Assembly (NCBI RefSeq): GCF_054482525.1
Contig: NZ_JBTHVG010000003.1
DNA: 64,000 bases
Source of the DNA: a plasmid
Reading direction: 5' to 3' (one strand)
The position numbers and the translations under genes were made by a program. The notes below the pieces were generated by a model that ran no database searches, was not told the origin of the DNA, and saw only the letters and a program-made list of their open reading frames with translations. The stretch's first letter is position 1. Every line of letters starts with the position of its first letter. Shown in pieces: positions 29,796 through 40,124 of this stretch.

Positions 29796-32180
29796 TTATA
29801 CGACCTGCCTGACCATCCTCATCAGAAGGCGGTTTAACAGTCCTTTCGCTGTCGGGCGATTGCTATCGACATAGTAAAAACCTGTTTTGGTCGTACCGTG
29901 AGCACTGCTCAGCACCCTCAGTTCCCAGATAACGTCACGGATAACGCCGCCATTTTCTGGCTTAAGGCATTCAGATAAATGGCGCATGAAACGAGCTCTT
30001 ACGGCACGGTAATAGCGGAACTCCTCTGGCTGGTTAGTATTTTCTTTCACCCGGAGTCGCTGGTTACACAGAGTTAGAACTGCATCCATCATTCCCGCCT
30101 TCAGCTTCGCCTGGATCGCACCTTGTTGCTGTTCCCTCTCACCTTCGAGTAACGTTAAGATTCTTTCTCCGAGTGCCGTCTTGTTGTGTACGTGCAACTG
30201 TACACAGGCAGCTACGCATGCCCAGAATCTGAACTTTTTTATCTGTCCACGCAATTTCCGGGCTACAACCTGACGGTATGCAGTATCGCTGAGTATTTTA
30301 AAACGCCGACTGGCAACCAGCTCTGGAAGCGACACTCTTTCGCCTATCCCCAGGCGGGAAAAGGTTTGTCCCCGTTGTGCGAGACGATGATAGACAGCGC
30401 CCTTCCCTTTTGAAATTCGGACCGCGCCATAACGAAGAAGATACTGAGCAGCAGTCGTTGGAGTAAACTCACCGTCAGCGATGCTCTGGCGTAACCCGTC
30501 GTATTCATGCCAGATAATCCAGGACGCCGTATCTTCTTCAACAGTCAGCTCATCCTCTTCCTCGAATGCCACGACGACAGAACTGCTCTCTCCGGTCTTT
30601 AGGCTACGTGAAGCCCTGGGGTCAGCCTGCCCGTCAAAATAGGTCATCAGCGGCAACGTATCAGTCAGTCCATCATAAGCTGTACCGAACCGGCCTCCGG
30701 GCAGTTTCATCCAGAGTGGAGCTGGCATTGGTGTACGGGCCACAGGCAGCATGTCAGGCTCATCCTCAAGAAGGTCCAGATCGGCCTCTTCCCAGACTCT
30801 GCGATAGATCTCAATTGCCCGAAACGGGCGAGGGTTGAAACAGTGCAACGACCAGAGGAAATCAACGTGGATCACGTTTGCTTCATGTACAAGCCGAAAT
30901 TGTGGCTCAGCCATACGACGGTTATAAGCCGTATCGTCCACCTCGCCGGAAAGTAGCTTTCTGCGATGCTTTGCCGCACGTCTGGCTTCAACATAATCAA
31001 GGCTGCAACAGACATGAAAAAGACGTTCAGTCAGGGACGAAGAAAAGATATTGGGTTGAAGACGCACATACCCGCCTTCGAACACTTTACGACCGATATA
31101 ATCCCGCAGGCTCCAGTCGTACTGGATCTTAGAAAGAAATCGCTGAAGACGACTTAGGCCTGCCTGATAACCATATTTCTCAGGGTCAGTGCGAAGGAGC
31201 GTTTCCATTGAATGGTCAACCCCTACGGCTGTGCAAAGCGAGCACCCATATCTAGCCCCACAAGCTGAGGTTCGCGTGGGTTTCTCCGGCGACCAGATAC
31301 ACTCTCCGGTGGCGTCTTTATAAAGCGTTGCCAGGCTGAAGTTATCCGGCATAAAGCTTGGTAAAGGGAAGCGGGATTCGGAACCACAGGCCATTAGAAA
31401 AGACCAGATGTCCTGAGTGCGCCACTCCTTTACTGGATAGAGTTCACCACCGTGCTCAGTCAGGGTTACTTTCCTCGCCTGCCCTCCCATTTTGAGGATA
31501 TTTCCGGCCCTTCGGGCACTTTCATCATCCCTGGAGCCCAGCATCAGGCATACCCTGCTTCGTACGGATGCCGGGGCGTTTTTTAGATAACGAGCTTTGG
31601 CCTTGCGCAGGGGGGCGATTTTGTAGTCGGTTGAGCACTGACGGGTTGAAGAATTAGTCCAGGTCGGAAGTCCACGTCCAGTCAGAATGCGGCCTACCCA
31701 GCTCTGCGTAAGAGACGGTTGGGCGACAAGGACTGTGACCGGTAGCTGGTGTTCAGCAATGAACATTCTAAGCTGGTTGAGAACCTGTGAAGCCTGATAG
31801 TGCATCTCAGGGTTTTCGATCAGCGTATCGGACATCTGAATGAAATGATGTTCGCTGATATTTGTGCCGTTACGTACTGCCCTGATCAATGCCATCAGAA
31901 ATAGGTGAAGAAGAGAATGGGAGTCTTTACCGCCACTGTATCCCACGCACATCGTCCATCCGTCCGTAATAGCCTGATAAATAGCAGATGTGGCTGACGT
32001 GACCAGAGAAGAAAGACTCACAGTCTCCTTTTCATCGGTATAGTTCAGATCGGCATCGGTTGTCAGGGTCTCCCAAACATCAGCCCATTTATCATGTTTC
32101 AAAATGGCAGCATTAGCCGCCTCAGGAAAAATAACTTCTGAGGGTAATTCAAGGAATGAGTCACTTTTTTCAATAAACAT
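29796..32180 (-). CDS. PP-loop ATP-pyrophosphatase (PAPS-reductase/DndC-like) domain protein with ~450-aa C-terminal extension
   Basis: PP-loop motif VGYSGGKDSHSLLHL; Cys cluster ACGARYGCSLCT; 794 aa; no dndA/B/D/E-like partners seen nearby. Confidence 0.55.
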   Translation of the reverse strand: MFIEKSDSFLELPSEVIFPEAANAAILKHDKWADVWETLTTDADLNYTDEKETVSLSSLVTSATSAIYQAITDGWTMCVGYSGGKDSHSLLHLFLMALIRAVRNGTNISEHHFIQMSDTLIENPEMHYQASQVLNQLRMFIAEHQLPVTVLVAQPSLTQSWVGRILTGRGLPTWTNSSTRQCSTDYKIAPLRKAKARYLKNAPASVRSRVCLMLGSRDDESARRAGNILKMGGQARKVTLTEHGGELYPVKEWRTQDIWSFLMACGSESRFPLPSFMPDNFSLATLYKDATGECIWSPEKPTRTSACGARYGCSLCTAVGVDHSMETLLRTDPEKYGYQAGLSRLQRFLSKIQYDWSLRDYIGRKVFEGGYVRLQPNIFSSSLTERLFHVCCSLDYVEARRAAKHRRKLLSGEVDDTAYNRRMAEPQFRLVHEANVIHVDFLWSLHCFNPRPFRAIEIYRRVWEEADLDLLEDEPDMLPVARTPMPAPLWMKLPGGRFGTAYDGLTDTLPLMTYFDGQADPRASRSLKTGESSSVVVAFEEEDELTVEEDTASWIIWHEYDGLRQSIADGEFTPTTAAQYLLRYGAVRISKGKGAVYHRLAQRGQTFSRLGIGERVSLPELVASRRFKILSDTAYRQVVARKLRGQIKKFRFWACVAACVQLHVHNKTALGERILTLLEGEREQQQGAIQAKLKAGMMDAVLTLCNQRLRVKENTNQPEEFRYYRAVRARFMRHLSECLKPENGGVIRDVIWELRVLSSAHGTTKTGFYYVDSNRPTAKGLLNRLLMRMVRQVV

Positions 32181-32352
32181 ATATTTTCCTGAACCACGGC
32201 ATATGCTGCATCACTGATATTTTTATTAGAACTTTAAAATAACTACAGCGCAACCATTTAGCGAAATTATATTAAATCAAAATCACGCAAATTTAATTCT
32301 TAAATAGATTTAAAATAAAAACCCATTGTAATTTAATCTCCCAGCACAGCTA

Positions 32353-32802
32353 TTAGATATAGGTTGGTGGTGTAATAAAAGCCGTGACATTTGTTTTCAA
32401 CTCAGACAGCGGAATTGAAGGAGTGTTAAGAGTCATGTCATCACCACAATGGCGTGGTAGAGCAGAAAGCTGAAATGAATCTTTCATCACCCTAATAACC
32501 GGGCATTCCGTACGTGCTGATGGCATTACTTCCCGCAGCATCGCTTCCTGCCTTGTGCTATCGCTATGCTTATATTCATCCTGGTCTGTTATTTCTTGAA
32601 TTTCATCTTCACCACAAAATGACCAGTTAGCGTCATAGAAGTAAAACTCAGTTAACTGAAGATCGTTTTTTTTCACGTATGTCGCCAATTTGCGGATACG
32701 CTGTTCAAGCATTGTATCTATCCGTAAGGAAACACTTTGCGGAACATCACTTGCAAAGTCATTGATGCAAACAACGGTAGATACTATGAATTTATTGGTC
32801 AT
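32353..32802 (-). CDS. Hypothetical protein
   Basis: 149-aa ORF. Confidence 0.45.
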   Translation of the reverse strand: MTNKFIVSTVVCINDFASDVPQSVSLRIDTMLEQRIRKLATYVKKNDLQLTEFYFYDANWSFCGEDEIQEITDQDEYKHSDSTRQEAMLREVMPSARTECPVIRVMKDSFQLSALPRHCGDDMTLNTPSIPLSELKTNVTAFITPPTYI

Positions 32803-32853
32803 GGCAGGCTCCAGGCCACCGGGGGAACCGGTGGCTACGGTTATCAGGCAGGC

Positions 32854-33645
32854 TTATGCGCCGCAAAGGGTGTCAAGGGAAGGAAGAAGCTTGCTCAGCT
32901 TGTCGTAATCGAGCGGAGACAGTTCTGTAACGAGTTCGACCGAAAGACTGGTGTTGTCTTCTTCACTCAGAATATAGATTCCGTCTTCTGGCTCTTTTCC
33001 GGCACATGCCTTCAGTCGTCTGTTAACGACCTCCTGGGCTGAATCCGCTACGTCGCAGCTCAGGACATAGCTTGCCACATAGCTGCTCTCACCGTGGTAA
33101 TGCGTCACTTTACACAGAGCATACTGGATACCGGCTTTGTGAGCCTCATTCATGAGACGAGAAAACTGACAGCCATCCTGGTAATAGTGGGTATCCTTTG
33201 TGACCAGAATAGTCATACCCCCAAATTCATCTGTCCGGCTTTTACTGCATGTAAATGCAGCAGTAATTGTTACCATTTCCGGGAGGTCGAATACCGACAG
33301 CACGGCAGTTGTGAGGCAAATTGCATGGTCAAGATCAATAGTCTCTCCATGAAAAACTGACAGCCCACTGCTGTTAACTTCTGTTGCGAACGACAGTTCA
33401 TAATTACAGTCTGGGCAGGATGGTTGCCCAAAGCTCGGCTCTGAAGGGTCATACTCAGGGTGGTTCTCAATAATACTGAGAATCAGCTTCTCAGTCAGAG
33501 AACAATCTGCCAGTGGCTTATCAATCAAACGCTCACCTTCTGCAATTTCTGCTTCGGTAACGAATGTGATTGCTTCTTGTGCCATTTTAGCCTGCTCCTG
33601 AGTGCAGGGAATAATAAACGACGCCAGAGTATAATTATCTGCCAC
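32854..33645 (-). CDS. Hypothetical protein (GTG start)
   Basis: 263 aa; AAGGAG upstream of GTG; conserved promoter cassette about 65 nt upstream. Confidence 0.5.
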   Translation of the reverse strand: MADNYTLASFIIPCTQEQAKMAQEAITFVTEAEIAEGERLIDKPLADCSLTEKLILSIIENHPEYDPSEPSFGQPSCPDCNYELSFATEVNSSGLSVFHGETIDLDHAICLTTAVLSVFDLPEMVTITAAFTCSKSRTDEFGGMTILVTKDTHYYQDGCQFSRLMNEAHKAGIQYALCKVTHYHGESSYVASYVLSCDVADSAQEVVNRRLKACAGKEPEDGIYILSEEDNTSLSVELVTELSPLDYDKLSKLLPSLDTLCGA

Positions 33646-33686
33646 AGTTGACTCCTTGATTATTTAATTAATGTATTTGATGAGAA

Positions 33687-33726
33687 GATCATAACAAACA
33701 CACTACTACCAACTAATAACCTGAAG
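33687..33726 (-). promoter_or_regulatory. Conserved promoter cassette
   Basis: TCAGGTTATTAGTT then TATGAT upstream of the GTG at 33645. Confidence 0.45.
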
Positions 33727-33871
33727 TCGTTTTTTTAGAAAAAATATTAAGAAGAATATGAACACCACCTCATCTTAAATTAATATTGTTCAGGATTAAT
33801 ATTCATTTTTGCAAATAAAAACCGCCAGACGGCGGCTTTTATAAAGAGGGAAATATCATTGGAAGCTGAAA

Positions 33872-34129
33872 TTACTTCACGGCAGGCCGACAAATTACGC
33901 GACTGCTGTGAGCTGAAGCGAAACTTGTAGAGGAAACTATAATCACCTTTTCTAAGTCGTCGGCACTGTCGGCAATATGATGCCGAAAAGCCTCCTCTGC
34001 ATCACCAGGGGAATCGGCTTCGACCGGGTAGGCCTGATCATCATCATCAAACATAATGCGCCCGGAAATGAGATAAAGTCGGCTCAAATCTGGCGTCGCT
34101 GCGCTCGTGCTTCGTTCGTTCAGATTCAT
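33872..34129 (-). CDS. Small acidic hypothetical protein
   Basis: 85 aa, Asp-rich (FDDDDQ). Confidence 0.35.
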   Translation of the reverse strand: MNLNERSTSAATPDLSRLYLISGRIMFDDDDQAYPVEADSPGDAEEAFRHHIADSADDLEKVIIVSSTSFASAHSSRVICRPAVK

Positions 34130-34194
34130 TTTTTCTCCGTCTGTTGCTCGTAAAAAGAATGACGCCGGTTTAAAAGGCGTCGCCAGGGTTCAGG

Positions 34195-34521
34195 CTAAAA
34201 CGCAGGGTTGCCATCGAGGAAGCTCATTGGCTGGCCAATAGCGGATGCCACCCTGAGAATTTCACCTGGTGTGGCATAGCGCAGCATTTCTGAGCGTCCA
34301 AATTTCTGATACTCATCTACTGACATCTTTCTCCACTCGGGGTGAGGATCTTTTCCGCACAGTGACCAGTTGCTTTCAGAGGAATCACGACGGAGAACGT
34401 ACACATCAAGCGAGGCTGTAAGCCCGCTTCCATATCCCCGCTGCGCTACAATACGAACCTGAGAACCATCGTCGCGTTGCAACGTCTGGGTTAATTTCGT
34501 GATAGGATCCTGAGAATGCAT
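34195..34521 (-). CDS. Hypothetical protein
   Basis: 108 aa; variant promoter cassette upstream. Confidence 0.45.
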   Translation of the reverse strand: MHSQDPITKLTQTLQRDDGSQVRIVAQRGYGSGLTASLDVYVLRRDSSESNWSLCGKDPHPEWRKMSVDEYQKFGRSEMLRYATPGEILRVASAIGQPMSFLDGNPAF

Positions 34522-34558
34522 GCCATTTACCTCGTTTTTAAAAGAATTACCGTAAGTA

Positions 34559-34598
34559 AATGATACCGAATCGAGAATTCTGGCTAATAGGTCAGAAG
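34559..34598 (-). promoter_or_regulatory. Conserved promoter cassette (variant)
   Basis: GACCTATTAGCC then TATCAT upstream of the start at 34521. Confidence 0.35.
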
Positions 34599-34727
34599 AA
34601 AAAATATTGCATATTTTTGAAGTGTAGGATAATGATTAGAATAAAATGGCCTGAATAAATCGTTAGCTTTAACTCTGCTTATTTCAGAAAAACTCTGAAT
34701 TAGTAGTGATGGAAAACGACGCGGTGA

Positions 34728-34738
34728 AAAGTAACTTT
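34728..34738. promoter_or_regulatory. Palindrome copy
   Basis: AAAAGTAACTTTT, about 205 nt upstream of the gene starting at 34521. Confidence 0.5.
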
Positions 34739-35363
34739 TACACCGCAATTCAGAAAAAAGTTTCAGTTAGTCACATTACGAATAACCCGGCTTACTTTCG
34801 CATGTGCGTTCCCCTGCATGTTAAAGTAAAGCCCTCCGGGCAGACTCGTCGCCCACTTAACGCCTCGCTCAGCCATACGCTTCGGTGTTTCCAGCCAACC
34901 ACGAGGAATATTGCCCGGAACGTTACCGATAACCCGTCAAATGCATGCTGCTACCCGGATGCCGCCGGGAATATCGCATTTGGATTCAACAATATGCATG
35001 ACCTCAGATAAAGCACCATGCCGCTGGACATGATCGCCAATGTGCAACTCGATAGGAGAAGCCATTTCTGAATCTGACTTCATATCTGTCCACCTTTAAT
35101 TTAGAAACCGTCTAAATTACCAAATTAGTTAATCCAACAACATCTGTATCACAACCATCAATTTGTTTTTGTTGGGTCTATATCGTAGAAACAAGTGAAT
35201 AATGAATACACTCGTTAATACAGACAACCGGAAATGAATGACTACCTGATTATCTCAGCGGTATATGCTAAGCCGTTAATATTGCCATTCTCTGGTGGAA
35301 CCACTGCTAAATGAATAAACCGTTTGTCGCTTCAAACCACTTTATCAAAACCGTTAACTTGCA

Positions 35364-36614
35364 TTAAGTCCGATACAGTTCGGCGAGCTCATCCAGCATG
35401 GGGTTACTCTTATATCCCGGTGCGGCCGTAAAAAGGTTTCGGGAAATCGCCAGCCACTCCATGATTTTGTCCGTCGCCAGCCAACGTCTGCCAAGTCGCT
35501 CGGCTGCGATGGGGACTTTATGCAAGCCAGCGAAGGGATCTACAACAAGATCTCCCGGCTCTGTCAAAAACTCAATCAGAAACGCTGCAAGCCTGGTAGG
35601 AGACGTTGCACCGTGCAGCGGAAAACCGAGCTCGCGGGCAATGGAATGGCAAAATCTCGTATCAGCGCAGCTATTGCCGTAAAACAAAGTATTCTTGGGG
35701 ATCGTTCCTTCTGTTTTATTTCCAAAGGAACCGCTTTTAAGCTGGTACGCCCCATCACCATAAAAGGTCGTGCGATTTTCACCGCCTGCTGCCTGCAATT
35801 TTAGATGCTGGTCTGAATGCGGTTGTAGTACACGTAAGTTGTTTGAACGAACCTTACTCGCATCATTGGTAAACCACAGCACAGGCTCATACGATGAGCA
35901 GAGCTGCACCCGTTGCTTACATGCCCAGTGCGTTGGCGATGGGGGCTTACTGCGATTCACCCACTGAAGCCTGTCCATGAGCTCAAGCCCCAGCTTGTCA
36001 CATAATGCCAGTGTCAGACGCTCCAGATACAGAGAACGTGAAGGCCTACCCCTATTAAAGCTATCTTGAGTGATATTCAATGCCACACTTGCGCCCGGTA
36101 CAAGCTGTTTCACGATCGGTTCGAGGATACGCAGAAGCCAGTCAATATAAGCCTGCTCGCCACGCCCCCCTCCGTGCCCGTAGTCTCTTGAATTTCGAAG
36201 GAGGTAAGGTGGCGAGGTCAGGCAAAGATGAATTTGCTCGGTGATATTGCTGAAGAAGGCATAGGCGTTTCCAAAAACCGATGCCCCAAGAGAAGTTGAG
36301 AAACCGACAACACAGAGCTTTTCCCATGACTCATGCAGGTTTGTTTTCGTCTTAGAGGCGTATCTCCAGACGCCCCGTTTTTCTGGAACGCGTTCGATGA
36401 CCCCGGCCTGACGGAGAGTCTGCTGAAACCAGCGAACCTTATGTTTGACGCCGCTGGTTCTGGTTTTATCTGACCCAAATTCTTTCAGTTCGTGCAATTC
36501 GGCATCCGACATGCCAGTTTTACGCTGCACTTCGCGATAAAGCTCGTCGTTGGTCAACGGCGATTCGGAGGCAGCGTAGATATGCGCAATTAAGTCCGTA
36601 TTAATCGTACTCAT
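35364..36614 (-). CDS. DNA methyltransferase (amino-methyltransferase, N6-adenine or N4-cytosine, beta-class order)
   Basis: Motif IV TSPPY precedes the SAM-binding motif DPFAG near the C-terminus; 416 aa; no adjacent restriction endonuclease recognised. Confidence 0.65.
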   Translation of the reverse strand: MSTINTDLIAHIYAASESPLTNDELYREVQRKTGMSDAELHELKEFGSDKTRTSGVKHKVRWFQQTLRQAGVIERVPEKRGVWRYASKTKTNLHESWEKLCVVGFSTSLGASVFGNAYAFFSNITEQIHLCLTSPPYLLRNSRDYGHGGGRGEQAYIDWLLRILEPIVKQLVPGASVALNITQDSFNRGRPSRSLYLERLTLALCDKLGLELMDRLQWVNRSKPPSPTHWACKQRVQLCSSYEPVLWFTNDASKVRSNNLRVLQPHSDQHLKLQAAGGENRTTFYGDGAYQLKSGSFGNKTEGTIPKNTLFYGNSCADTRFCHSIARELGFPLHGATSPTRLAAFLIEFLTEPGDLVVDPFAGLHKVPIAAERLGRRWLATDKIMEWLAISRNLFTAAPGYKSNPMLDELAELYRT

Positions 36615-36782
36615 CAGCCATCCTAATGGGGATACAGTTATTATATCGGCCTGATGGTTGGAAGTGAGATTACTAAATCAGACCGATCTGGTTTGTTGAA
36701 GACTTTGCCAAATCATGCAGCACAGCTGGGCTTGCACAGAGCGAGCCGGGCTCCTTTAGCGGAGACACCTTCGCAAGTTGGA

Positions 36783-37403
36783 TTAATCAGCCTCAAGATT
36801 CTGGAACTCAATGAGCTTTTGCTCACACTCCTCCCTGCCCCACGATCCCTGCCAGTCACAGATGTCCCGGTACTTACTTTCCAGCTTATCCATCTGTGCG
36901 AGATTAGCTGTTGCGAAGTCTGTCCATATGTCATGCCAGCAAGCGTTGTACGTAACGCCAGCTGGTGGACAATACTCCATTGCATCAGCATTAATAATTT
37001 CAACGCGAAGATCGGTTGCAAACGAGGCTGCAACGAGGTTAATAACATCCTGTTCTTTTTCGATTACCGTGACATGGGTTACATCGTCTTTCTGAAGAAT
37101 GGCGTGGAGCACCATACCAAGACCAAGACCATTAATGAGCACCCGCCCGGTGGCTCGCTCTATAAAATCCTGGCAGGTTCGGATCTCCATCGGGGTATTG
37201 GACATCACCACATCCCAGCCGTTGGACAAGCGGCGATATCTACCGGGCGGGATAAACTCATCTGTATTACCAGTACACTCGGCACGAAGGGCGAGGGTCA
37301 GCGCCTTATCTGTGGTAATTTCGAAAGTGTCCAGTTTCCAAGTTCCGGACTTGCCGTCTTTAACGGGTAAATCAGAAAAGCAGCTCTTCATCGAGGCAAC
37401 CAA
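36783..37403 (-). CDS. Putative class I SAM-dependent methyltransferase
   Basis: Gly-rich loop VLINGLGLGMV followed by an acidic residue (VTVIEKE); 206 aa. Confidence 0.4.
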   Translation of the reverse strand: MVASMKSCFSDLPVKDGKSGTWKLDTFEITTDKALTLALRAECTGNTDEFIPPGRYRRLSNGWDVVMSNTPMEIRTCQDFIERATGRVLINGLGLGMVLHAILQKDDVTHVTVIEKEQDVINLVAASFATDLRVEIINADAMEYCPPAGVTYNACWHDIWTDFATANLAQMDKLESKYRDICDWQGSWGREECEQKLIEFQNLEAD

Positions 37404-37546
37404 AATTCCAGTAGTTTTGTTACGCTGAACCTACCACAAACCCGCTCTTAATGAAGGCATCAGGAGCGATAGCGATCTTTGAGGCATCGTTTAAAACAGC
37501 GGCATCCTGTAACAGACACCCGATATTTTTTTTAATGCCGCAGGTG

Positions 37547-37804
37547 TTAAAGGTAGCGTTGCAAAGTTGCAACATCTTCAGGGGCAACCTCCACGCAGCT
37601 CCTGACACTGTAGTGATTTTCGCCGTTGTAGTCATAAACCCCACCGTCTTCAAAACTCAGCTGTTCAACCTCGCCAGCACACTCGGAAATCAGTGCCGTC
37701 TGGCAAGCATTTTTCTCACAATCGCTGACGAGTATACGAACATAGCTTTTCTCATGGTCGCCGTTACGGTTCTGGATCTTTACGATAAAGTGTTTTTCAG
37801 ACAT
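37547..37804 (-). CDS. Small hypothetical protein
   Basis: 85-aa ORF. Confidence 0.4.
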   Translation of the reverse strand: MSEKHFIVKIQNRNGDHEKSYVRILVSDCEKNACQTALISECAGEVEQLSFEDGGVYDYNGENHYSVRSCVEVAPEDVATLQRYL

Positions 37805-37868
37805 TTGTGCCTCCAGCTCAGGTTGAGGTTAATTTAGCGTTGCCCCGGTTCACCGGGGCAAGAATAAA

Positions 37869-38297
37869 TCAACCCTTAATGAAATTGTGCCCCCAGGTGT
37901 TAGGCTTAAATGCCTGCTCTTTGATATATGTTTTCATTACCTTGCAGGTTTTTTTCAGGGCTTTGGTATTGGCATCGGTTACTGGGATAAAATGGCGAGA
38001 ATGACGGTTTTCCCGGTACTGCTTATCAGCGTTTGGGTCAATTGCTTCGCTTTGCAGGAGCCCTTCGTGCCTGCCAATTACTATTACGTAGTTCATTTCA
38101 CCTGAAACACGATCCGTGAGTAATTGAAGGGAAATATCAGCTGCTCGCGTGGCCTGGCTTGCAGATATTTTTGCATGCAAGAAAGCCCCCTTTCTGAATT
38201 TGGCCGGAGTTAGCCCTGTAATATCCTCAACACTAAAATTAAGTGAGGAAAGAATTGAAAATAAGTCGCAGCTAATGACTTCAGTATTATTAGGCAT
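37869..38297 (-). CDS. Hypothetical protein (size and context compatible with a small anti-restriction protein; unverified)
   Basis: 142 aa; promoter cassette upstream; no motif I can assign with certainty. Confidence 0.4.
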   Translation of the reverse strand: MPNNTEVISCDLFSILSSLNFSVEDITGLTPAKFRKGAFLHAKISASQATRAADISLQLLTDRVSGEMNYVIVIGRHEGLLQSEAIDPNADKQYRENRHSRHFIPVTDANTKALKKTCKVMKTYIKEQAFKPNTWGHNFIKG

Positions 38298-38319
38298 TTT
38301 ACCCGTCCCCGTCCATATT

Positions 38320-38370
38320 CATGATACGGTAATGATACCAGGTCGATATCATTACCTAATAACTTGGTGA
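38320..38370 (-). promoter_or_regulatory. Conserved promoter cassette (variant)
   Basis: AAGTTATTAGGT then TATCAT upstream of the start at 38297. Confidence 0.4.
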
Positions 38371-38391
38371 AAGAAAATCTGTAATTTTTAG

Positions 38392-38769
38392 TTAACTAAA
38401 ATTAATAGTCTCAATACTGCTCAAGAATTCTTTTTTTACGTCCGGTGTAAAAGGTATACGTTCAATGTATTTATAAAGTGTCGCAAATGTTTTGGGTTCA
38501 ATGTTTCGGGAGATAATGTCATCAATCGGATCTTCGAACATATTGATAAAGATATCGACATGCTGCTCTCCGCTTTCTGATGCCTTTGAAAGAAGACTGA
38601 CCACTTCAATGTAGCGATTATCCTGCTCTGCAATGAACAACCAGTGCCCTTCGTTAAAGGCGGGTGCAGCGCTGTAGCGTTTAACAACAATTTCTGAAAG
38701 ATTATATCCTGCCTGATTCAGCAGATTATTAAAGTTGAGTTGAGTTGAAATCACGTCTAACGTTTTCAT
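38392..38769 (-). CDS. Hypothetical protein
   Basis: 125 aa; AGGAGG upstream; promoter cassette with TATAAT -10. Confidence 0.45.
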   Translation of the reverse strand: MKTLDVISTQLNFNNLLNQAGYNLSEIVVKRYSAAPAFNEGHWLFIAEQDNRYIEVVSLLSKASESGEQHVDIFINMFEDPIDDIISRNIEPKTFATLYKYIERIPFTPDVKKEFLSSIETINFS

Positions 38770-38791
38770 AAAACCTCCTTTTCATCTGTAC

Positions 38792-38829
38792 TTATTATAC
38801 TGTTACCCAACCCCCAGCTAATAACCTCC
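38792..38829 (-). promoter_or_regulatory. Conserved promoter cassette
   Basis: GGAGGTTATTAGCT, about 17 nt, TATAAT upstream of the start at 38769. Confidence 0.45.
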
Positions 38830-38939
38830 CAGCAAATTTTCAGAAAAAAAACACCGCCTTTTATTTAAGATTGAACACATCCTTTTTAAATACCAACAAT
38901 GATTATGAAACCACAATGTAAGTGAAGCGCCATTATGGA

Positions 38940-38950
38940 AAAGTAACTTT
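38940..38950. promoter_or_regulatory. Palindrome copy
   Basis: AAAAGTAACTTTT, about 170 nt upstream of the gene starting at 38769. Confidence 0.5.
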
Positions 38951-39176
38951 TGTGCAGCTCATAAATTTTATTTATTAGTTACGTTCCTTTGTCTTGTGGT
39001 CGAAGTTCATCAGGCGAGGCCTAAGAAGAATATGTGTGGTTTCAGCCAATGCGGTGATCGGGCATTATAATTTGGTCGGGCTATTATACGTGGGTAAAGG
39101 TAGTGGTAGGGAGAGGATCAGGTTAAATTGCATTTTCCCGGTTGCCTTCCCTGGCCTACCGGTTTCAGGTCAGACG

Positions 39177-40124
39177 CTAAGACCAGCGGTAATACTTAAA
39201 GTAGTCCTCATTTACAGCCAAAAACTCCCTTAAACCGTTCATTAATCCCTTTTCAAACGCTGTAACGATAAACCGGTATCCGTCCAGTGTTTCAATGTAG
39301 TAGATCCCGCCCGGTGTTATTCCAACATGCAACACCTCGGCTGTCATCATAAACTGGCCTTCCGGAAAATCATGCGACAGGTATATAAAACCCGTCGTGG
39401 CCGGTGCGGGTGTGGCATTCACTAAGACACCGTTAAACTGCTGCCCGTGCCTCGCCGGTACAAGCTCACTTCCCCTGGTTGACTTATCGAGCAGCCCCTT
39501 AACATCTTTTTGCTCTTTAGATGAGGTATAGCCCCGCACATCACTCCCATCACCTGGGCGAGAGCCGGTGCCGACATGTGCAAGACGACGGTAAGCGCTG
39601 CGCATATTGATGTGGCAGGATGCCCCGGCTCTACCCTGAAGCCTTACGCCAAAATCTTCGCAAAGTAATAAAATCTGACGTAGCTGGTGTTCATACACGG
39701 ACGCAGAAAGTGAAAGGTTGAAACTGGAAAAGGTCAGTTCTAAAACCTTTTCCCGTTTGTCATTGAAATGTGCTTCCAGCCTGATGATTGGCTTTTCCGA
39801 CATTGCAAAAGCTTTGTCCGTTGCTCTGTACCGGCATTCATCTCCGAAACATTCTTCAACAACGCTGGCTATAACCGTGTCGTGATCGCCATCTTCCGGA
39901 GCTGGCACAAAGATTTCAAATTGTGCCGGTGTCTCCGGCTCCAGCAGAACGGGATATAAACGCGGAGAATTAAGCAATGCGCATTCAGAATTAATGAGCT
40001 TAACCCAGGCGCTTTTGTCGTCCGGATCCTTAAGCTGCTGTCCAAGGTTATCGCAAAAGTCTACTATCTGACGGGTATGCTCATCCGTGACTGCACAGAT
40101 CAGGTTAAGACCATGCGTGGCCAT
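39177..40124 (-). CDS. Hypothetical protein (about 315 aa from ATG at 40124; the listed ORF extends to a TTG at 40220)
   Basis: Long ORF downstream of the HigB-like gene; start uncertain. Confidence 0.45.
   Translation of the reverse strand: MATHGLNLICAVTDEHTRQIVDFCDNLGQQLKDPDDKSAWVKLINSECALLNSPRLYPVLLEPETPAQFEIFVPAPEDGDHDTVIASVVEECFGDECRYRATDKAFAMSEKPIIRLEAHFNDKREKVLELTFSSFNLSLSASVYEHQLRQILLLCEDFGVRLQGRAGASCHINMRSAYRRLAHVGTGSRPGDGSDVRGYTSSKEQKDVKGLLDKSTRGSELVPARHGQQFNGVLVNATPAPATTGFIYLSHDFPEGQFMMTAEVLHVGITPGGIYYIETLDGYRFIVTAFEKGLMNGLREFLAVNEDYFKYYRWS

Follow-up and report, generated by a model that had tools for sequence, protein, structure and literature searches.

The minus-strand segment 34763-35083 of an IncHI2 (MOBH) conjugative plasmid very probably represents the pseudogene of a small accessory gene conserved among IncHI plasmids, or at most an allele of that gene in heavily truncated form. 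According to this explanation, a C to G transversion would have converted the serine codon TCA at position 49 into TGA in the ancestral plasmid of the IncHI2 lineage that is carried mainly by Escherichia coli and Salmonella. Translation from the intact Shine-Dalgarno (SD) sequence and ATG should stop after 48 residues, and after the mutation the frame appears to have evolved without purifying selection. The other 521 bp of the surrounding gap would be two ordinary intergenic spacers, the 5' one carrying the SD sequence and a palindrome, and the 3' one carrying a hairpin and the lead-in to the next gene.

An interrupted frame between two minus-strand genes

The window, that is, the whole stretch of DNA analysed here, comprises 64,000 nucleotides of contig NZ_JBTHVG010000003.1 (assembly GCF_054482525.1). 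Genes for a MOBH (TraI_2) relaxase and a coupling protein lie at its start; oriT is not inside it. An earlier note, made from the letters and an ORF list, had singled out a gap between two minus-strand ORFs in which the only listed ORF lies on the plus strand, and both the flanking genes and this ORF were as described there. The features that concern the interrupted frame are as follows.

34522-35363, the gap, between the minus-strand ORFs 34195-34521 (108 aa) and 35364-36614 (416 aa) in the ORF list
34195-34521, minus strand, downstream neighbour: 108-aa ORF, WP_000556022.1, with an identical protein in the sister lineage
35364-36614, minus strand, upstream neighbour: DNA methyltransferase, Pfam N6_N4_Mtase (9e-22) plus Mrr_N
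34763-35083, minus strand, whole probable pseudogene: 107-codon frame of 48 codons, TGA, 57 codons and TGA
34937-34939, minus strand, premature stop TGA at codon 49: TCA or TCG (Ser) in relatives, within AAC-x-SRL
34937-35083, minus strand, residual 48-aa ORF including the stop codon: hypothetical protein WP_001426334.1 in RefSeq/PGAP
35090-35095, minus strand, SD sequence AGGTGG: 6-nt spacer to the ATG at 35083-35081, same in the sister lineage

The earlier note had also pointed to the minus-strand ATG at 35083 with AGGTGG upstream, and this motif was read directly at 35095-35090. The TGA-ended frame that it proposed is real, but holds 48 sense codons, one more than the 47 it had counted. Its estimate of about 57 further codons past the TGA proved exact: translation from 35083 to 34763 gives 57 codons and then a stop at 34763-34765. 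As judged from alignment, this continuation is evidently not due to chance, the whole 321-nt frame being collinear codon by codon with intact genes.

Intact orthologues in related plasmids

A pseudogene had been one of the options in the earlier note, which proposed to look for an intact gene of ~100 aa in related plasmids. Such genes were found (106 aa in a sister IncHI2 lineage and 102 aa in IncHI1-type plasmids), and the change from TCA to TGA at codon 49 relative to these intact orthologues favours that option.

The sister IncHI2 lineage, 92% identical and found mostly in Enterobacter and Klebsiella, encodes the intact 106-aa protein WP_000834113.1 at the same locus, with TCA at codon 49. 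We used Enterobacter hormaechei pQnrB4_020042 (NZ_CP028537.1, hereafter L002) as its reference. The locus resembles that of the window, with the methyltransferase upstream, WP_000556022.1 downstream, and the same SD sequence, ATG, stop position and terminator-like hairpin. Aligned with L002:1743-2063 (minus strand), the window frame showed 14 nucleotide differences in 321 and no indels (95.6% nucleotide identity), and the change from TCA to TGA was the sole frame-breaking difference. At the protein level, the window frame differs from WP_000834113.1 by the TGA and by eight amino-acid substitutions. Over 106 positions, the conceptual translation of 34763-35083 (minus strand) and the intact protein share 91.5% identity, and the family motifs are present in the former.

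A more distant intact orthologue, WP_022652122.1 (102 aa), was found in IncHI1A/IncHI1B-type MOBH plasmids (L003 and L004; NZ_CP031135.1 and NZ_CP056587.1). It lies directly downstream of the orthologous methyltransferase, shares ~73% protein identity with the intact IncHI2 allele and contains all family motifs; its codon 49 is TCG (Ser). Unlike the IncHI2 loci, this locus has an unrelated upstream spacer, lacks the palindrome and has a Xre/RES toxin-antitoxin pair inserted downstream. Across 21 homologues, the codon-49 column, within AAC-x-SRL, holds Ser in 18, Cys in two (P0024 and P0037) and Ala in one. A member of the family should have an uninterrupted frame of ~96-115 codons for the core domain; in the window copy this frame is broken by the TGA at codon 49.

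A very small family with a predicted barrel fold

The family motifs, SPIxLxxGDxV, AAC-x-SRL, IPR and GLYWNxQGN, extend over ~100 aa. A phmmer search run exhaustively over 1.84 billion cluster representatives returned 21 proteins at E<=1e-3; since some of these are fragments and at least one is a non-homologue, the family is very small. The family alignment has 22 members, and the column counts refer to 21 homologues. The family is unnamed, very rare and carried on plasmids and phage-like contigs. Neither intact orthologue matched Pfam-A at E<=0.1 or any NCBIfam model, and the intact protein matched nothing in PHROGs or PADLOC. Likewise, the family profile found no PDB sequence at E<=10, and tblastn against 50,697 GenBank phages gave no match.

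Outside the IncHI plasmids, the surroundings of the homologues are long arrays of small genes that lack annotation and all point in one direction. Two of the contigs (L008 and L011) bear phage hallmarks (terminase, portal and Mu-F), and three others (L007, L010 and L012) are plasmid- or phage-like, with DndB, PAPS-reductase-like or C5-methylase genes close by. No neighbour was conserved across these non-IncHI contexts.

Several matches were set aside or qualified. P0035 (420 aa) was rejected as a homologue: it is a repeat protein that has only a short 'IPEGLFSGVTGNA'-like motif in common with the family, and the resemblance of its repeat unit '...TSIPEGLFSGVTGNA...' to the family motif SLPEGLYFNIQGNA is a motif coincidence. 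P0028 (1557 aa) was matched by phmmer at the alignment level through 14 short stretches, all to query residues 70-89. Two apparent inactivations in the intact lineage were also discarded. P0008 (L014, JGI 3300045647, positions 1501-1825) was rejected as an independent inactivation and attributed to an assembly error because of three homopolymer deletions and a split neighbouring methyltransferase. The lone 1-nt deletion in P0004 (L013, ERR1841103, positions 1501-1825) is of doubtful reality and was not counted as a recurrent loss.

The AlphaFold2 model of the intact protein, computed from the 22-sequence alignment, had a pLDDT of 91.9 and a pTM of 0.82, and comprises six strands and two short helices. 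When the model was compared with the PDB using Foldseek, eIF5A or EF-P accounted for the top seven and nearly all of the 50 matches listed; the best had an E-value of 5.7e-3 and a TMq of ~0.55, and none of the matches listed was at E<=0.001. The closest solved structures were the N-terminal SH3/KOW-like domains of eIF5A, EfpL and EF-P. Matches in BFVD were uncharacterised phage proteins and giant-virus eIF5A. An hhalign comparison with E. coli EF-P gave a probability of 0.3%, that is, no sequence relationship.

In its predicted fold, the family shares the SH3/KOW-like barrel topology of EF-P/eIF5A domain I. In contrast to EF-P/eIF5A, the family protein is a single domain of 106 aa with two extra helices and without OB domains. 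In addition, the beta3-beta4 loop of EF-P and eIF5A has a modifiable Lys/Arg at its tip, whereas the corresponding loop of the family, by approximate equivalence and not by superposition, reads E-C-D-I-P-G-G. Distant homologues do not conserve this loop. Such fold resemblance is common among small SH3-like barrels. The likeness to EF-P/eIF5A domain I is a resemblance between a predicted fold and solved ones, and as such a lead, not membership. It is improbable, though conceivable on the model, that the family acts as a free-standing mimic of this domain that hits a host partner (for example an enzyme that modifies EF-P, or the E-site region of the ribosome), and that the IncHI2 plasmids of E. 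coli and Salmonella lost it adaptively, as a host-specific way of discarding an effector that was costly or of no use.

For the pseudogene itself, the model is informative about where the truncation falls. Residue 49 lies inside strand 4 (residues 44-52). Residues 1-48 thus comprise the first three strands and a portion of the fourth; the rest of strand 4, the final two strands and the two helices would be missing from the 48-aa remnant. Because the product would retain fewer than four of six strands and no helix, it is very unlikely to fold. We infer from the model that it would not fold and would be non-functional.

Distribution and age of the TGA allele

Using megablast, we found 989 PLSDB plasmids of ~200-400 kb that match positions 34100-35500. 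They are typed IncHI2A, MOBH and MPF_F, come mostly from Escherichia, Salmonella and Enterobacter, and fall into two identity blocks, with 590 records at >=99% and 397 at 90-95%. Over the central coding part only, another 59 plasmids, IncHI1-type or other MOBH, match at 60-80%. An exact 56-nt probe across the stop, in which the stop codon is the only inter-lineage difference, matched 587 PLSDB plasmids, and 395 others had at least one mismatch. Similarly, tblastn with the intact protein separated 392 plasmids at >=99% from 588 at 91.5%; the latter group is the TGA lineage and includes NC_009838.1 (E. coli APEC O1).

An 86-nt probe representing the window haplotype with TCA restored had no exact match among 982 plasmids. 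With 587 carriers and no TCA version of the window haplotype, the TGA allele is fixed in its lineage. The plasmids of this lineage are nearly identical at the locus and therefore represent approximately one mutational event, not 587. These sequence comparisons indicate an old, fixed, decaying pseudogene. A search of the literature for these accessions, or for any description of a pseudogene in IncHI2, returned nothing relevant.

The 982 probe-matching plasmids include 891 typed as conjugative, a figure that pools both alleles without a split between them. Because hundreds of plasmids of the TGA lineage persist and most locus-matching plasmids are typed conjugative, we infer that the gene is dispensable for the maintenance and spread of IncHI2 plasmids.

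Selective constraint on the interrupted frame

We compared codon differences between the window and L002 in the interrupted frame and in three neighbouring genes. The ratio of nonsynonymous to synonymous differences (N:S) was 9:4 in the interrupted frame and 10:37 in the neighbours pooled (Fisher p=0.002), made up of 9:29 for the methyltransferase, 0:4 for 34195-34521 and 1:4 for 33872-34129. Six of the nine replacements could be polarised with the IncHI1-type outgroup (S5, A8, stop49, N54, P56 and M89); in all six the derived state was that of the window branch, in none that of the sister branch (two-sided binomial p=0.03), counts that are small, though all in one direction. In addition, Phe26 is replaced by Ser in the window frame at a position that is hydrophobic in 21 of 21 homologues. 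Split around the stop, N:S was 4:1 before it and 4:3 after it. Neither the 48-aa fragment nor the downstream part looks to have been kept by selection, and with an N:S of 9:4 and six of six polarised replacements derived, the window frame does not show the purifying selection expected of a family member.

These data bear directly on whether the gene is recoded, as the earlier note had considered. The UGA would then be read as Trp (near-cognate) or as selenocysteine, and the full-length 106-aa protein would be made, perhaps at a regulated low level. We regard this as very unlikely. The derived replacements lie on both sides of the stop and include conserved positions, the opposite of what would be seen in a maintained recoded gene. 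The 57 codons after the UGA are still open, but in a nearly clonal lineage (590 records at >=99%) an open downstream frame is uninformative. Two distant homologues, P0024 and P0037, do have Cys in the codon-49 column; however, the ancestral codon is Ser TCA and not Cys, and it is a sense codon in all close relatives. The Cys that marks non-selenocysteine homologues of a selenoprotein was not found in the two closest orthologues, both of which have Ser. Furthermore, no SECIS-like hairpin was seen (a 76-nt fold at 34870-34945, minus strand, had a z of -0.41, and none started near the UGA), and cmscan of 30000-40000 on both strands gave no Rfam match at E<=1. UGA-C is a weak, relatively leaky stop context in E. 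coli, and slight full-length product with Trp or a similar residue at position 49 is therefore possible, although no sign points to programmed readthrough.

Another reading is that the 48-aa peptide is itself functional, as a neofunctionalised or dominant-negative fragment under selection. The peptide is probably still made, as the SD sequence, the ATG and the upstream palindrome are perfectly preserved. It is annotated as a CDS by PGAP, and its allele is fixed in a very successful plasmid lineage. Such fixation, however, follows from clonal descent. Codons 1-48 show an N:S of 4:1 against the sister lineage, and three changes are counted as derived here, S5, A8 and S26, the last at a universally hydrophobic position. 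The fragment also ends inside strand 4 of the six-strand barrel, and some plasmids have IS5-family elements separating the ORF from the methyltransferase, with no evident effect. We therefore consider a selected role for the peptide highly improbable and retain the decaying pseudogene as the explanation.

Spacers, hairpins and the opposite strand

The pseudogene is flanked by two spacers with the following features.

35084-35363, minus strand, upstream intergenic spacer, 280 nt: structurally unremarkable and lacking a strong sigma-70 match
34522-34762, minus strand, downstream intergenic spacer, 241 nt: fold z -1.13, ~93% identical in L002
35097-35119, minus strand, perfect 9-bp inverted repeat TAATTTAGA-CGGTT-TCTAAATTA: abuts the SD sequence and folds as a hairpin
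34721-34746, minus strand, terminator-like hairpin GCGGTG-T-AAAAG/CTTTT-CACCGC (GCGGTGTAAAAG-UUA-CUUUUCACCGC): present in both the MFE and the centroid structure
34711-34720, minus strand, GTCGTTTTCC tract after the hairpin: hairpin and tract together span 34711-34746

The inverted repeat at 35097-35119 is unique in the window, with 0 expected by chance. It is 100% conserved in L002 and absent upstream of the IncHI1-type orthologue, and could be a 5'-UTR hairpin or an operator. The hairpin at the other end starts 17 nt past the stop codon and is kept in L002. Together with its tract (34711-34746) it looks like an intrinsic terminator, but only a weak candidate because a consensus scan missed it. 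That scan for promoters and terminators found no sigma-70-like promoter, and its single terminator-like match falls inside the coding frame. The small gene may be read through from the methyltransferase. A repeat search returned only short families at chance level.

Insertions and deletions were observed in and around the spacers of related plasmids. A 1199-bp IS5-family element (IS5 or ISKpn26) lies in the upstream spacer of several TGA-lineage plasmids (H1-H4), and L009 (CP088806.1, positions 1484-2964) has a 1199-bp IS5 insertion between the methyltransferase and the ORF. A 15-nt indel, ATTAACATCCGGTAC, separates the window from L002 at ~35134 on the minus strand (alignment columns 231-245); it is flanked by an ATTAAC direct repeat and is consistent with slippage. 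In L003 and L004, positions 1745-2914 downstream of the intact orthologue hold a Xre/MbcA/ParS-antitoxin and RES-toxin pair and another small gene. Since the Xre/RES pair is inserted there in IncHI1A/B-type relatives, the intergenic site is a cargo insertion point. In the Enterobacter ludwigii MOBH plasmid NZ_CP094843.1 (L005, positions 2288-3131), an IS1 abuts the last 131 bp of the upstream spacer; here the methyltransferase is joined directly to traD/mobH, and the small gene and everything up to the Tra1 genes are deleted.

Both spacers were folded as RNA and, for either strand, as ssDNA, and with z-scores of -0.3 to -1.4 against dinucleotide shuffles they were ordinary. An Frpo-like ssDNA promoter, for which the ssDNA folds were considered, was rejected on these values. 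They also speak against the proposal, likewise raised in the earlier note, that the stretch is non-coding RNA or structured regulatory space (an sRNA, a riboswitch or an ssDNA promoter) in which the ORF fragments are incidental. It is true that 521 of the 842 bp are non-coding and that the 9-bp palindrome and the terminator-like hairpin are conserved in both IncHI2 lineages. However, the central 321 bp are accounted for by protein-level homology, no Rfam family was matched at E<=1, and the spacer folds lie within 0.3-1.4 sd of shuffles. Moreover, the spacers diverge more than the coding part between the lineages (about 7-8% versus 4.4%), and the upstream spacer is not conserved in IncHI1-type relatives and tolerates IS5 insertion. 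Taken together, this makes a non-coding origin extremely unlikely.

The remaining candidate is on the opposite strand.

34706-35011, plus strand, spurious antisense ORF, 101 aa: open in the window, interrupted in L002

Although the ORF list gives no other frame of 60 aa or more in the gap, there is virtually no chance that this one is the real gene of the stretch, as it has a GTG start, is antisense to a demonstrably homologous coding frame and is broken in L002 by a TGA exactly at the minus-strand Ser49 codon (...TDNP*NACC...). It is open only because the minus-strand change from TCA to TGA turns a plus-strand TGA into TCA; the earlier note, which had remarked that this ORF runs against the block, was right to distrust it, and it is an artefact of the same SNP that marks the pseudogene.

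Neighbouring genes

IncHI2 and IncHI1-type plasmids have both conserved the methyltransferase encoded at 35364-36614 (Mrr_N-like N-terminal domain plus N6_N4 MTase domain), and the small gene always follows closely downstream of it. With no restriction gene next to it, the enzyme has the appearance of an orphan methyltransferase. Farther along the minus strand, 29796-32180 encodes a 794-aa protein annotated as 'PAPS reductase family'. In PADLOC it matched DndC models (E 4e-38) and a Type II MTase model, with a weak match to BrxP as well, and it had no Pfam match at 1e-5; no other dnd genes are obvious beside it. The product may serve the IncHI2 backbone as a stand-alone enzyme of DNA modification or anti-restriction.

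On the other side of the methyltransferase, two long ORFs on opposite strands, 36654-37370 (plus) and 36783-37403 (minus), overlap almost fully. The minus-strand ORF is RefSeq WP_000833773.1, and its methyltransferase-like similarity in Pfam is only faint (E 1e-3 to 7e-2). The ORF on the plus strand (238 aa) is probably another antisense artefact.

Implications and comparison with known pseudogenes

The finding is an ordinary one of little biological weight, and its main value is as an annotation correction and a lineage marker. WP_001426334.1, listed for hundreds of resistance plasmids of the IncHI2 type, ought to be annotated as a pseudogene of WP_000834113.1. The codon-49 SNP is a clean marker that distinguishes the (mostly) E. 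coli/Salmonella branch of IncHI2 from the (mostly) Enterobacter/Klebsiella branch. Our results also suggest that the gene is dispensable for the persistence and transfer of IncHI2 plasmids, which would narrow the candidates for essential backbone functions. The intact family, with its confidently predicted barrel resembling EF-P domain I and its occurrence on mobile elements, could be a minor target for functional screens.

In its features, the interrupted gene resembles bacterial nonsense-mutation pseudogenes in general, which likewise have a single premature stop, a collinear frame, relaxed constraint and a short 'hypothetical protein' annotation. Compared with the usual nonsense pseudogenes, its only notable point is that the TGA allele is carried by a very widespread resistance-plasmid lineage.
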